Source of the DNA: Schmidtea nova
Lineage: Eukaryota
NCBI GenBank assembly: GCA_044892505.1
Contig: CM097882.1
Span: forward strand, 41,354,001-41,418,000
DNA: 64,000 nt
Direction of reading: 5' to 3'
Below, piece after piece: positions 37,903 to 46,310 of the stretch; the first letter of the stretch is position 1, and each line of letters starts with the position of its first letter. Below the pieces are notes generated by a model. That model saw only the letters and a list, made by a program, of their open reading frames with translations, did no database searches and was not told the origin of the DNA. Both the position numbers and the translations under genes were made by a program.

Positions 37903-38560
37903 TCAAAAGCCATGCGCACACCGACGCGTACAAAATAAATATTTAACTACGCACACAGACGAAGCACAAAATATCAACGCGCACACAGACGCGAGGACTA
38001 TGCCCAGGTAGAAATCACCAGCCCATTTTAATCCAATTGTCGAATTTTCGATTTCCATCATTGTGTTCTCTTCTATCGCCAAATCAATCTCTTCGGTTGT
38101 TGCCTCAATTTCTTCGAACATGACGAAGGTTTCCAACGTTGCTATTTCCGTTGATGTTGATGCTACGTTCCGGAGATTCTTATACTCCTCCAACGAATAT
38201 CTTCTAGATGGTAACTTTTTTGGAGGAGATATATCGTCAATCCAACGATGTTCTATTTGTAGATATATTCTCCTTATACCCTTGACATCTTCCATCGCTG
38301 AGTGAATGCCCACCTGAGTATCTTCTCCGCATATTTCCTGCGCCACTGTTTTTAATTTATATCAATCTCCCCTTCTAGTTATTCCCATTCTTTGAAATAC
38401 CTGTGCAGCGGCCAAATCCCTGATACCGTAAAATTGATTTACCCAAATTTAAAGGAATGTTAATTCAGCATGTAAATCATGCCCAACCAAGATTTTTCCC
38501 GCTGTTAGTTTCTGTATATCTCTCATTTCAGGATTCTTTTTTGGATTCTTTTCGTTGCAT
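37903..38560 (-). pseudogene. REX4/ISG20-like DEDDh 3'-5' exonuclease with acidic linker and C-terminal transmembrane helix
   Basis: GKILVGHDLHAEL, IRDLA, YKLKTVAQEICGEDTQVGIHSAMEDV...IY.....W, then FYLGIVLASVCALIFCASSVCVVKYLFC. Two in-frame stops; the ExoI motif is not recognisable. Confidence 0.75.
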
Positions 38561-38631
38561 ACGATGGAAACACTCATATTGCATCTGTACATACCACATT
38601 TAGTATCATTACCGTTGAGATCAGTAGCACT

Positions 38632-39234
38632 TTATTGATATAATTTAGTGGAGCCGGGTTTTTTCGTGAATTTCTGTTTAATCATTGTCTGTTTATCTTT
38701 ATTTGATTTTGATCTTAACGGATATCGTGTCATATTTTCCATTGGTACCTTTTTACACCGATTTACGTGAACAATTATTGTTCCCGCCGTTTTATTGTTT
38801 TGTGGGCGTAATTTTAGATTAGTCTCTGTAGCATCGCACACTAAATATGGTCCTTTAATCAGTTTCCCAGTTTTGAAATCAAGTGTGACTCCTTGTAATT
38901 GTTTCATGATGTCCATGCCAATCAAACATTTGACCGGGCTTTTTCTCATCACTGATACCCAATGAGTTATTTCTTGGTTTCCAATATTTACTTTGACTTC
39001 TAATTTTCCGACGATGTTTAATACGTTATATGTCATTGACTTAATTATTTTTCTTGTTGGCTTTATTTCCACCTTCTCTTGTCTAGTCAAGAAACTTTTC
39101 GATACTATGCTGTGACTTGAACCTGAATCCAATAGCGCCTCAACTTTTCGCTTATTAAACTGTATGTCTACGCGAGATTGTTTTCCTCCGAACTCTATTG
39201 TCATTAATGCGTAACTGCATGGTAGCCCAAGCAT
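38632..39234 (-). CDS. Retropepsin-type aspartic protease, downstream of and in frame with the glycoprotein
   Basis: VEALLDSGSSHSIV active site and CLIGMDIM C-terminal motif. Confidence 0.9.
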   Translation of the reverse strand: MLGLPCSYALMTIEFGGKQSRVDIQFNKRKVEALLDSGSSHSIVSKSFLTRQEKVEIKPTRKIIKSMTYNVLNIVGKLEVKVNIGNQEITHWVSVMRKSPVKCLIGMDIMKQLQGVTLDFKTGKLIKGPYLVCDATETNLKLRPQNNKTAGTIIVHVNRCKKVPMENMTRYPLRSKSNKDKQTMIKQKFTKKPGSTKLYQ

Positions 39235-39279
39235 GTTCTTTCTTTCAATTTCGACACTTGATGGTTCAATCTTTTCTAA

Positions 39280-39975
39280 TTAGACTTGTATCTCATCAAC
39301 TGGTTTCATTTCTCTCAATTTTTCACTTGTATATACAGGAGCTGTTGACATAAATGTCGGTGTGTACCATTTAGAAAGAGTATCAACTCCGGTTAGTTTT
39401 GGCAGGGGTTCAAGCAAGAACCTGGATTCGGGTTCTATTCTACTTTTCATTATGCTCCTTTGGAAAACTTTTGGCTCTGATCTGCCACCGTTGTTCTCAT
39501 TACTATGGCCATTATTTTTATCTTCGTGATCACATACTGATTCTTCACTTTTTTGCTCATTTTTCAATTGTGCCCGTACATTTGACATTTCTTTATATTG
39601 ATGATTCGTGATGAAGAATATTGCCAAAAATGGAATACATCCAATAATTATTTTCCATGACCATCCGAAAATTGTATATATCCTGTGAGTGGACAATACT
39701 TGTGATATTATTACCTTTACTGTTACTGCTATTACATAAATACCAATTAAACCTGCACATGCTTGTCCTAAAAACATATATTTACCTCAAATCTTTTACA
39801 TTGTTTTGTAAGTAGCTCGTTTTAAATGATCAGGTGTCAGCAAATATTCGTAATTAACTTTTCCTTCTCCATTCGGCAATATTGTATCAATCATTTCTGA
39901 AATCCCACGTTCCTTTTTTGAAGGAAATAACAAATTTCTTTGGGCCTCTTCAATGTCTTCACTCGCATATAGACC
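39280..39975 (-). pseudogene. Env-like glycoprotein, C-terminal part (membrane-proximal region, TM helices, tail)
   Basis: GLYASEDIEEAQRNLLFP; FLGQACAGLIGIYVIAVTVKVII; IYTIFGWSWKIIIGCIPFLAIFFI. Two in-frame stops at 39796 and 39787. Confidence 0.75.
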
Positions 39976-40224
39976 TGTGAGATAATAAGACAATTTAAAT
40001 ATTTATTCAGTCAATAAATCTACTTATTTAAACAACTTTATTTTCTTTTATAAATCATTATTTTAAATTATTCTTCTTTATACATCTCCCCGAGATTCTA
40101 ACAAATCTTCATTCCTGTGCCTCAAGTCAGCTACATGACGCGGCATTGCCACGGTTCCGTAATCGACGATTGCTTTATGCGGAGACAGCAGCTTCATGAT
40201 TCTTCCTCTCATCCAGGAAGATGT

Positions 40225-43421: not shown

Positions 43422-43433
43422 GCCCGGATAGCT
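43422..43433 (-). promoter_or_regulatory. Putative PBS complementary to the 5' 12 nt of tRNA-Lys(UUU)
   Basis: The plus strand reads GCCCGGATAGCT and abuts the LTR end with zero spacer; this equals nt 1-12 of the conserved metazoan tRNA-Lys(UUU) as recalled. Confidence 0.7.
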
Positions 43434-43552
43434 TGTGAGATAATAAGACAATTTAAATATTTATTCAGTCAATAAATCTACTTATTTAAACAACTTTATT
43501 TTCTTTTATAAATCATTATTTTAAATTATTCTTCTTTATACTTTATACTTCT

Positions 43553-44950
43553 TTATTCTTCTTTAATTTGTGCCATTTTGTTCATTGATGTAAAATTTGT
43601 AAAGTATTCTAAATTCGTTAATTCCAGTTTGTCTGGCGTTCTTACTCCTCTGTAATCTGGTAACGCTATCCATGAGTCTTGTGTTAATCGATATAATAGA
43701 GCTAATAATCGATTACATTGTAAGATTTTGGGTTTAACTTGTTCTTCAAGCAATATTCTGGTGATCGGTTCCATGAATCGTAATTTCCCGTCAACACTTA
43801 CTGGTAATTCGTTTGTACATTTATCATATTTCGCCATTTTCACTGTAATTTCTTTGCATTTGTAATTGCATAGCGCTTCTCCAAAGATTCTGGCAAATAC
43901 ATCGTTTTCTGAGATTAGCATAGGTGCTACTAAGTTTGGATTGGTAATCGCCATTGCCATTCGATTTCGGAGTATTTCTTTATTTAATTTACAATCGTTC
44001 AATATCATTTCCCTGTATATGTTCTCCATGGTGTTTTGGCTAAAATGAAATAAATAATCGATTTTATTGTTAAAATAATGGGTTAATTTGATATCATCCC
44101 TATAAATTCTCGTTTTGGCTTCCTGTACAATTGTTTTCGACACGTATACTCCTCTGTAATTCGTTGCATAAACTGTTTGGCCACACTTACTTGTGATTTC
44201 CTTTTTTATAAAACGCATACTATCCGTTGGTAAGGTTGACATTAAAACCGTCGCGGTTTGTCTTATCCAAACTGGAGTTGACCTGACTGTCCCATTCGGT
44301 TTATAGTTCGCGTTGAAGTTGTCTAGTCTCTACCTAAATTGCTCTCCAGTTAATTCCTTAAAATTCATTGTTTTTAAATGAGCTAGGTTACATACATTGG
44401 TTTTGACTTTGTAAACAAGAATTGATTCTCCTGCGTGACAGCTAGTTTGTTTCATATTACAAAATGGATGAGTTTGTAGTTTTCCTCTATCGTCGTCAAC
44501 AGATCCTTCAAATACTCTCAGTTCCGTTAAATATTCCTCTATTACTACTGTTTGTTTAATCACTTTATCGGTTATTTTGTACGGTTCACCCTCACAATCA
44601 CCGTCAGATTTAATCACTCCCTTTACTACCAATGTTTCTCGAATTTGATGATTTACTTTGGCTTTCAATCGAATTTCAGGACTGATTTTTAATTCCCCGG
44701 TTTGAAATGCTGTTAAGCAATTTTCTGGCAATACGTCCACTGGTCGTGGAATAGCGTGCATTTTTATTAATGATGTGTGGCTCCATTTCCCACAAAAGAA
44801 TACAAAAGTGGTTCGTTTTACAATGCATTCTCTAACTTTAGTACGTCGCAAATCTGACTCTTGATACACGTGGTATTTTACTTCGTTTTCAATCTTCAAT
44901 TTTCGAGGGTATGCGTCTGGGCACTCTGACATATCAATTACATTATCCAC
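43553..44950 (-). pseudogene. Chuvirus-like (class III, gB-like) fusion glycoprotein ectodomain
   Basis: Cys-rich; FFCGKWSH, GDCEG, FCNMKQTSC, KCGQTVYATN, FARIFGEALCNYKCKEITV...KCTNELPV...FMEPITRIL. One in-frame TAG at 44330. Confidence 0.75.
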
Positions 44951-45016
44951 GGGAATATCATCGTTTTCCTCAGTTTTGGACTTACATTTTCGTTCAATTG
45001 TCTTTGAGGTGAATCC

Positions 45017-46310
45017 TCATCTTCTTGTTTTTTTCTTTTCTTTATTACAGATGAATTCAGCGCTCTCCAGCTCTTTAATCCACTTTATTAGATACTCGTT
45101 TACCATTCTTCCAGCAGTATCGATTAAACTATCGAACTTATCTGACCTTGTAAATGCATGAATACCAATCTCGGATACAACATATATTAAGCTTTTTAAC
45201 ACTATTTCCTTATCAATTCCATTTTTAATCAAATTTTCTAGTACTTCTCGCTTACAAATTTGTGCCAAAATTTCTCTTTGCCAAATTTCTACAATACTTC
45301 TAGAAGTCTGATTTTTACTTCCTCTACCATCCCTTTCAATTCCTCCTCCGTTTCCGTTTCTATTTTTAGAATTGGATATACAACTTTAACTAAATTTCTT
45401 ATTACATCACTTGTTTCATCAACTTCCCGCTCTAATTTTACTAAATTCTTCTTCATCTCATATAACGTCCTAGTTTTCTTAATGTCATTTTCAATTTCTT
45501 CTTTTTCGATATTTGTCTCCTCAATAACTGTCATTTTTGCTGTTTAAGCATTATTATTAATTCCCTTTTTACCATCATCATCAGTAACTATTTCAATTTC
45601 GTTTTCCTTTATTTCTCCTTCTTGCTCATCTGTATCTGAAGATTCAACTTTGTCAAGCATTCTCGAATTAAATTCTTTATTTGCTATTATTCAATTTATT
45701 AAATACCCCTGACTTCCATTAGTAATCAAATACCCATATTCATCCAATTCCTGAGGTACACATCCACAGTCATACAAATATTCATCGTCATCAAGTTCTT
45801 CTCCTTTATATCTCAACACTATAATTTCATCTTGTCCTAACATTTCGGCAGCCCTTTACGCACTTTTCGAACTTTCGTACACCAGTGTTCTTCTATATAC
45901 CCAATTTTCCCTATATCTTCATACTCTATTGCAATTGTTAGCGAATTTATCTCAACTTTATCTTTTCTAAGATCTTTACCCAGTTTTCTCAATATTCTCT
46001 TTAAACTTTTACTACATCCCATTCTTTAAAACATATATGGTCGTATCACATTAATAATTTCTATCTTTTCTTTTTGCCCAAATTCAGACTCTTCACCTAG
46101 TTTTACTATTTGATTAATTTCAATTTAATCACTAATATATAAAACATCATATAGTTCCCTCACTATTTCCATCGGATCACTTTTTATCGTTTCACAGTTA
46201 CCCATCATGCTAACTACTTGTAATTCATTTTTATTCCCTGGTATGAAACCACAATCTATTAAATATTCATCATTATCTAAATCTCTATTTTTAAATTTTA
46301 ATTCGACCAT
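45017..46310 (-). pseudogene. Fragmented charged/helical coding region between Gag and the glycoprotein; unknown function
   Basis: Series of short minus-strand E/K-rich ORFs; the last (45017-45268) is in frame with the glycoprotein across one TGA. Confidence 0.4.

Follow-up and report, generated by a model that had tools for sequence, protein, structure and literature searches.

The glycoprotein and protease frames described here are part of a 16.6-kb LTR element with 818-bp LTRs and a 4-bp target duplication (Table 1). This outer element is very probably one copy, now dead and with internal deletions, of a compact Burro-like Ty3/gypsy family with GAG-ENV-POL order; judging by likeness, its host is most likely a planarian. 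Within the window, the whole 64,000-nucleotide stretch analysed, it shows TG...CA LTRs, a putative primer-binding site, a polypurine tract and the target duplication, the set of features expected of an LTR retrotransposon. The two LTRs share 785 matches with 30 mismatches over 815 bp, and the start of the 3' LTR is mutated. Once the nested element is subtracted, about 13 kb remain. The domains follow each other in the order Gag, ubiquitin-like pieces, Bcl-2-like domain, gB-type Env, protease and integrase C-terminal module.

Table 1. Features of the outer element and its insertions, in the direction of the element (window positions)
Feature	Positions	Strand	Basis
Target-site duplication, 4 bp, upstream copy	49486..49489	-	partner copy 32919-32922
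5' LTR, TG...CA, 818 bp	48668..49485	-	LTR comparison
Putative primer-binding-site-like sequence, begins TGG, 3 nt past LTR	48647..48664	-	sequence likeness
Gag, four CCHC knuckles, interrupted by two stops	46294..48108	-	Retrotrans_gag (E 4e-4, under cut-off), zf-CCHC, knuckles, ATG
Ubiquitin-like piece 1	46215..46325	-	profile from segments of 7 relatives, E 6e-10
Ubiquitin-like piece 2, frame differs from piece 1	45745..45840	-	7-relative profile, E 1e-10
X, Bcl-2-like domain, BH2-like end damaged	45023..45262	-	profile of 4 relatives
Lesion zone, hydrophobic internal signal without trace in all three frames	44945..45075	-	frame inspection
Env ectodomain part 1 (gB-type / Monjiviricetes fusion protein), interrupted once by an in-frame stop	43566..44944	-	Pfam
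Nested Ty3/gypsy element, unrelated, young, with short A-rich filler at 5' side	39976..43565	-	LTRs, ORFs
Env C-terminal part, two stops	39610..39975	-	profile and hydropathy
Hydrophilic tail and linker after Env, one stop	39187..39609	-	alignment with relative
Pol aspartic protease, catalytic Asp ~39127-39129	38857..39186	-	Pfam, alignment, tree
In-frame deletion junction	38850..38862	-	P0001 vs P0003 alignment
Integrase C-terminal GPY/F module and Pol tail	38632..38859	-	11 relative proteins align, up to 78% identical
Spacer without homology; second deletion junction, first half of exonuclease gene removed	38527..38631	-	profile, frames
Second half of ISG20/Rex4-like DEDDh exonuclease gene, two stops	38068..38526	-	profile positions 252-392 of 506
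1043-nt segment, 6-nt direct repeat at borders	36978..38020	-	skipped by contigs in 3/3 runs
Possible tail of exonuclease gene, in register with exonuclease in skipped form	36719..36976	-	contigs
Polypurine tract	33742..33755	-	sequence
3' LTR	32923..33740	-	LTR comparison

Upstream of Env, the Gag assignment agrees with the relatives, since CCHC knuckles precede the glycoprotein domain G in 7 of the 12 long relative proteins inspected. The label "ubiquitin-like" draws on motif likeness and on the available part of PMC6431247, and piece 1 has zero matches in a Pfam scan. Domain X scores 18.1 bits against a profile of four relatives, the runner-up anywhere in the window reaching 4.3. Relatives of X score 23.4, 17.1 and 14.2 bits against Pfam Bcl-2, for which the cut-off is 31.4, and the alignment of X matches Bcl-xL (E 7e-4), chiefly via the BH2 motif. 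A fold search with X gave nothing clear and no match at E 0.001 (75-residue model, pLDDT 66). X is thus likened to Bcl-2 by sub-threshold matches.

G is recognised as Pfam Monjiviricetes_fusion (PF24664) on either side of the nested element, with the profile reaching position 474 before it and resuming at 477 after it. Rejoining the frame across the insertion, as the earlier note had done, is confirmed by this continuity and by contigs from all three runs, which link both flanks without the insert. The nested element has identical 108-bp LTRs, an open gag (42753-43460) and an open pol (40228-42813). Its 5' junction is scrambled, and no target duplication was seen when one was looked for. The Env is identical to that of the published Smed_errantivirus_1 at 201 of 251 aligned residues (hand count). 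Viral contigs yielded no relative for the Env alignment and metagenome contigs none for the window Env. The hydrophobic anchor of Env is found at about 39691-39774. Beyond it, at about 39610-39675, lies another hydrophobic stretch that is weaker (hydropathy 1.82 vs 1.98 for the anchor), so that the topology is unproved.

No signal peptide is evident before G in the present copy, as had been remarked before, but this is not a trait of the family. A hydrophobic segment lies directly before G in 16 of 16 long relatives, with a best 13-residue hydropathy of 1.67-3.32 vs 0.25 in the window. Long contigs cease to match at about 44938, by the lesion zone.

The protease (Pfam gag-asp_proteas, E 3.8e-9) lies in frame downstream of the Env anchor. 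The two groups of minus-strand ORFs on which the earlier note built, each sharing one frame, are present between 45268 and 43553 and between 39975 and 37903, in pieces of 571 and 690 codons. Their in-frame stops are at 45017, 44330 and 43553, and at 39796, 39787, 39280, 38632, 38449, 38362 and 37903. That several stops are one substitution away from a sense codon carries no weight, because 7 or 8 of the 9 single substitutions possible in any stop codon give a sense codon. A frameshift proposed at 38560-38630 is not borne out either; no stop interrupts that frame between 38631 and 38452, and 38527-38631 matches nothing. The succession of glycoprotein and protease in one frame, in contrast, is well founded. 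All 19 relatives extending at least 200 residues beyond G reach a protease, and locus L002 has it in an open frame. The 163 relatives were gathered by queries favouring G-plus-protease proteins and include near-copies (P0003/P0005, P0007/P0155, P0022/P0157); 66 have G, and of these 20 go on to protease, 10 to RT and 7 to integrase. Pol in the relatives has the order PR-RT-RH-IN.

By its sequence relationships, the window protease is an ordinary Pol protease, directly joined to an integrase C-terminal module. Residue 373 of P0001 aligns with residue 1511 of P0003, while residues 374-375 align with about 2496-2497. About 985 codons would thus be missing at the junction, a size gauged on a relative 23-45% identical, and they comprise the linker, RT, RNase H and the integrase core. 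Among the contig rows listed, none bridges the protease-integrase junction and none breaks there. A full-length RT and integrase in continuous frame are absent from the present copy. With the deleted codons restored, the Gag-to-Pol span is estimated at about 8.84 kb vs 8.78 kb in Smed_errantivirus_1, if the span listed for the latter includes two 3-kb flanks; this agreement counts as weak support. The stop at 38632-38634 is likely the true end of the polyprotein. The protease seems out of place only because this copy has lost the enzymes that would ordinarily come after it, and its supposed displacement from the position before RT falls away. In the protease tree it is sister to P0006 (100/93), with P0025 next (97/77), the deep branches being weak.

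These relationships bear on the earlier reading, namely a polyprotein of Env, X-G-TM-tail-PR-Exo-TM, that brings an Env-processing protease of its own, apart from any Pol. Every piece downstream of the nested insert does share one frame, and extra proteases occur between Env and the Pol protease in P0003, P0008, P0158 and L002. However, the integrase C-terminal module, missing from the earlier list, stands between protease and exonuclease, and the window protease clusters in the tree with one that runs on into RT. Moreover, the exonuclease is unfused in 57 relatives and lacks half of itself in the window, and the last TM falls in a segment that contigs skip. What stands of the polyprotein is Env and protease in one chain; exonuclease and last TM are not members, and as a whole the reading is largely refuted and has very little chance of being right.

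The deleted form might instead be a mobile, helper-dependent subfamily with Gag, Env and protease, for which intact elements would supply the RT and integrase used in copying. The join between protease and integrase module keeps the frame and sits on a dipeptide common to both sides, as a template switch would give, and LTRs, primer-binding site, polypurine tract and target duplication are complete. Yet a single dead copy could equally arise from a template switch, none of the 163 relatives has protease and GPY/F module without RT or integrase, and the four closest proteases all run on into a normal linker, P0025 further into RT. We regard such a subfamily as unlikely. It differs from a dead, internally deleted copy only in the timing of the deletion and in whether the deletion spread.

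An assembly artefact, in which repeat copies collapsed into a chimera, could also produce deletions. The surroundings are repeat-rich (27-30% G+C), the outer element matches thousands of contigs, and the scrambled 5' junction of the nested element, with its lack of a target duplication, would fit such a collapse. Against this, the outer target duplication agrees at both sides and the join is in frame on the shared dipeptide, which leaves a chimera quite improbable. The family-level conclusion stands whether or not the deletions are an artefact.

Downstream of Pol, the window retains the ExoII and ExoIII motifs of the exonuclease. ExoI is absent from all three frames searched, so the window exonuclease is a remnant. 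The relatives' exonuclease is predicted to be a 3'-5' nuclease of DEDDh, ISG20/Rex4 type. All three motif patterns occur in 25 of 38 alignment rows, some of them partial, and the model of a relative (pLDDT 87) is closest to ISG20 (Z 19.0, rmsd 2.3, 161 aligned). At its N-terminus the family has an additional domain, some 170 residues long, for which the Atlas gave no lead and whole-model fold searches were filled by nuclease-domain matches. One weak row from the whole model is a YcfD-like hydroxylase (rank 49, E 3.6e-4), a lead only.

The earlier note had named conserved stops and separate starts in intact copies as grounds against its polyprotein, and in intact relatives the exonuclease does come after a stop and has its own start. 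In L002 a single open frame of 3101 codons begins ahead of Env and continues past integrase; it ends at a stop, and the exonuclease ORF follows in a different frame. At L003 and L007, too, Pol is followed by a stop and a separate exonuclease ORF. None of 57 exonuclease proteins is fused to G, PR, RT, IN or GPY/F. The gene thus follows Pol at three independent loci and in the present window. Eight exonuclease loci were considered: L004 was pooled with L003 because their ORFs are the same, L001 and L005 lack an ORF upstream, L006 has an unassigned one there, and L008 (44% G+C) was left out as a probable cellular gene. Env, Pol and exonuclease occur on one contig only in L002; no LTR was seen on the exonuclease loci, and viral contigs yielded no exonuclease relatives.

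The 1043-nt segment is probably an insert. It contains the last TM of the earlier reading (about 37945-38001) and a 238-codon open stretch, which has zero relatives by sequence search (130-417 aa) and Atlas scores of at most 0.79. Comparisons of the possible tail at 36722-36976 with the exonuclease family profile were not significant.

In intact elements of the group, as the relatives show, one frame encodes Gag, the ubiquitin-like and Bcl-2-like domains, then an internal signal, the gB-type fusion protein with its anchor, protease, RT, RNase H and integrase. The internal signal would thread Env into the ER, where signal peptidase may cut, and the anchor would halt transfer, leaving the two flanks of Env, Gag and Pol, in the cytosol. 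The protease would then release itself from the Env tail and process Gag and Pol in the manner usual for LTR elements. Earlier it was proposed to process the envelope from the cytoplasmic side; a cytosolic protease cutting itself off the Env tail is reasonable, a dedicated Env-processing enzyme is not. After the stop, the separate gene would give the predicted ISG20-like 3'-5' exonuclease. In this reading the present copy underwent two deletions, one taking the RT-RNase H-integrase core and the other the front half of its exonuclease gene, lost the internal signal, gained the nested gypsy element and probably the 1043-nt insert, and accumulated stops. The G-PR-Exo-TM frame would exist because these deletions, signal loss, insertions and stops summed.

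A bolder and rather unlikely reading is that the conserved separate gene after Pol in Burro-like gag-env-pol elements encodes an ISG20-like RNase that is active, has a beta-rich N-terminal domain of no assigned class, and acts in counter-defence against host small-RNA silencing. The role is a guess, and helper-dependent spread of RT-less Gag-Env-protease copies would be a further possibility.

Among known systems, nematode non-canonical ERVs (Sacco et al. 2022) share Env ahead of Pol with the present element and differ in host group. Such ERVs reportedly have a continuous gag-env-pro-pol frame. The planarian Burro/GYPSM1 elements, gypsy-like LTR retrotransposons of giant size, have, by the available part of PMC6431247, an in-frame gag-env-pol layout, more than 30 kb, an ORF near 5000 aa, and BIR, MATH-TRAF and ankyrin cargo. 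Env between Gag and protease, with ubiquitin-like and BCL2-like domains before it, is common to both, the single frame being broken here and open in relatives. The outer element differs in being 16.6 kb with inserts, in its deleted RT, RNase H and integrase core, and in the downstream exonuclease gene, unmentioned in the section of PMC6431247 on Burro. BIR, MATH-TRAF and ankyrin had no Pfam matches among the window ORFs scanned, and the element is thus Burro-like, not Burro itself.

Smed_errantivirus_1 of Schmidtea mediterranea is described as an "ancient errantivirus" with GAG-ENV-POL order, an HSV/gB-type Env and 45 copies (PMC13524379). Gene order and Env type agree and the Gag-to-Pol span is similar, whereas the present copy is not intact; with RT and integrase deleted, it is therefore classed as derived from the GAG-ENV-POL errantiviruses and defective, and does not count as an intact one. 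No LTR was found for Smed_errantivirus_1 (PMC13524379), while those of the outer element lie 4.9 kb past the Pol stop. GAG-ENV-POL elements are not one clade (PMC13524379). The order stressed in the earlier note, in which the protease follows the glycoprotein within one frame, is not new, having been published for planarian elements (PMC13524379 and, in the part available, PMC6431247). The present copy adds, modestly, LTRs and a 3' region to a family listed without LTRs, and the downstream ISG20-like exonuclease gene. How Gag and Pol reach the cytosol and Env the lumen from one membrane-spanning chain is a testable question of cell biology.

Literature searches found no earlier description, for the Burro-like group, of a gene for an ISG20-like exonuclease lying downstream of Pol, and the word "exonuclease" is absent from the main text of PMC13524379. 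A parallel is bdelloid Juno/Vesta, in which, going by the available part of PMC5408684, a 3'-5' exonuclease is also a separate accessory gene (ORF3) after pol. That enzyme is RNase D-like DEDDy in elements described there as having no env, whereas the one here is of DEDDh type with an extra N-terminal domain.

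The core observation, a glycoprotein followed by a protease in one frame, holds. All seven ORFs named in the earlier note lie on the minus strand, in the two frame groups described there, which read as 571 and 690 codons with X at the stops. The glycoprotein (G) is an Env matching Pfam PF24664 (Monjiviricetes_fusion); profile positions up to 474 lie before the nested gypsy insertion and those from 477 onwards after it, and contigs in all three public runs join the flanks without the insert. Two hydrophobic stretches are found 3' of the Env ectodomain (hydropathy 1.98 and 1.82), and a retroviral-type aspartic protease is in frame 3' of the Env anchor. 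The stretch at 38560-38630, thought to be frameshifted, is in frame, though it has no match to anything. That stops are one substitution from sense codons is uninformative, each stop codon having 7 or 8 sense neighbours out of 9. The domain list was also incomplete: it omitted the integrase C-terminal GPY/F module after the protease, the domain which decides the case.

This module forms the 50 residues directly after the window protease, and 11 stored relative proteins align to it. In the alignment to the relative P0003 (3108 aa), window residue 373 pairs with 1511, where the protease preceding RT ends, and the residues after it pair with about 2496-2547, the C-terminal end of integrase. By this alignment, ~985 codons are missing between the window protease and the integrase tail. 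The four closest proteases run on into the usual linker, and P0025 among them further into RT. Among 51 protease domains placed in a tree with weak deeper branches, the window protease is sister to P0006 (100/93), adjoining P0025 (97/77). Given the GPY/F junction, the continuation of the closest proteases and the tree placement, the protease is at its normal position at the head of Pol and is not displaced, as had been supposed. The integrase C-terminal module of P0034, 78% identical to the one in the window, is joined to a presumably TRAF-like protein, so labelled from motifs; the joint is a gene-model chimera or else reflects cargo of the sort carried by Burro, a giant planarian gypsy-like element.

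Judged from the relatives' sequences, the Env-Pol fusion is a trait of the family. G is carried by 66 of 163 stored relatives, a set with some near-copies and with queries favouring G-plus-protease proteins; the same protein continues to a protease in 20, to RT in 10 and to integrase in 7. A protease is reached in all 19 relatives that extend 200 or more residues beyond G. The single frame is directly seen at the locus L002, where 3101 open codons encode in order a Bcl-2-like segment, Env, three proteases, RT, RNase H, integrase and a tail. Gag can share the frame with Env, since 7 of the 12 long proteins examined have CCHC knuckles N-terminal to G. Many relatives (P0003, P0005, P0008, P0158, P0159, L002, L003, L007) contain two to four aspartic protease domains, the extra ones between Env and RT or even after integrase. 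In L002 (7900-9303) and at the C-termini of P0003, P0009, P0068 and P0155, the polyprotein continues past integrase into another signal-like segment, then a soluble domain and a TM, which together look like a second membrane protein closing Pol. P0009 and P0025, labelled in their source records as proteins of bacterial metagenome-assembled genomes, are probably animal DNA binned with bacteria.

A hydrophobic segment is observed directly before G in 16 of 16 proteins of at least 700 aa with a match to the G start (hydropathy 1.67-3.32). The window frame before G has a hydropathy of 0.25, and the other window frames also lack such a segment; among the matches listed, long contigs cease to match the window at about 44938. 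The claim that no signal precedes G is correct for this copy but not for the family, and the missing internal signal is damage to the window copy.

Besides its LTRs, the outer element has a 4-bp target duplication, a PBS-like sequence and a polypurine tract. Upstream of the Env/protease region are a Gag with four CCHC knuckles and two pieces matching the ubiquitin-like segment of relatives, which have no Pfam match. X, the domain before G, matches the pre-Env segment of relatives at 18.1 bits, the next best score across the whole window being 4.3. This segment of the relatives gives sub-threshold Pfam Bcl-2 matches, and its alignment matches Bcl-xL at E 7e-4; a fold search with a short model of X was blank. 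The nested element is young and unrelated to the outer one; its 108-bp LTRs are identical and both its gag and its pol are open.

Features of the outer element, the nested element and other repeats (window positions)
Feature	Position	Description
LTRs of outer element	48668-49485 and 32923-33740	785 matches, 30 mismatches between them
Nested Ty3/gypsy element	39976-43565	gag and pol overlap; carries DUF7047; target duplication not seen; A-rich filler on 5' side resembles LTR start
Segment skipped by contigs	36978-38020	6-nt repeat at bounds; 238-codon open stretch, no relative in sequence or Atlas search
3' region within outer element	33741-36700	~3 kb, mostly non-coding; simple repeats, two masked runs
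G+C-richer stretch in 3' region	near 35200-35760	
Inverted repeat	53054-53394 and 53826-54166	342 nt, 97.7% identical; possibly a small DNA transposon
Dispersed repeat family	860-1673, 22829-23925, 25997-26448	direct and inverted copies, 80-89% identical
Probable DNA transposon remnants	56575-57300 and 2499-3089	ORFs; weak zf-BED and DDE_1 matches, both below cut-off

The exonuclease and the last TM had been placed within the polyprotein, and neither belongs there. In 57 relatives with an exonuclease, G, PR, RT, IN and GPY/F are all absent. Of eight exonuclease loci fetched, three are independent and have an upstream gene that could be identified: L002, L007 and L003, which has a twin in L004. 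In these, Pol ends at a stop and a spacer of 160-340 nt precedes a separate exonuclease ORF. The last TM sits inside a segment skipped by contigs in three of three runs, which is repeated elsewhere in the genome since many contigs cover it; the segment may have been gained at this site or lost from the other copies. In the skipped form the exonuclease frame stays open to 36719, its tail having no significant homology. The window exonuclease covers only profile positions 252-392 of 506, with the ExoI motif absent from all frames, a truncation that marks a second deletion. When a natural member of the exonuclease family was modelled (pLDDT 87), its best match was ISG20 (Z 19.0, rmsd 2.3, 161 aligned); for its N-terminal 170 residues no class was found. 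At L003 (4600-11517), a Pol tail contains ankyrin repeats; next come two tandem ORFs of the exonuclease family and then another ORF, whose end looks ubiquitin-like.

Judging by how membrane proteins and LTR elements generally behave, the internal signal would insert Env into the ER and then be cleaved, and the Env anchor would bring the chain back to the cytosol. Since RT and integrase have to end up on the cytosolic side, the chain is assumed to make a single membrane pass here. The protease would then free itself from the Env tail and process Gag and Pol. The proposed processing of the envelope from the cytoplasmic side is likely to occur, as a by-product and not as a special function. The window copy is unable to replicate by itself.

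An in-frame gag-env-pol arrangement is already published for Burro/GYPSM1 of planarians (PMC6431247). GAG-ENV-POL elements with a gB-type Env are described from Nematoda, Bryozoa and Platyhelminthes, six of them from Schmidtea mediterranea (PMC13524379). The Env of one, Smed_errantivirus_1, matches the window Env at 201 of 251 positions by hand count. The window base composition agrees with the A+T of over 70% in S. mediterranea (PMC11410931). The main text of PMC13524379 contains no occurrence of "exonuclease", and literature searches gave two mentions, both for rotifer Terminons, and none for such elements among the titles and abstract starts listed; Sacco et al. 2022, Grohme et al. 2018, Jurka 2007 or their supplements may already report it. 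Rotifer LTR elements carry DEDDy exonuclease ORF3s (PMC5408684). The outer element is a defective derivative of a type already in print. With RT and the integrase core absent it does not count as an intact errantivirus, and lacking the size and cargo of Burro it is not Burro itself. The window copy now works like neither, while its ancestor worked like both.
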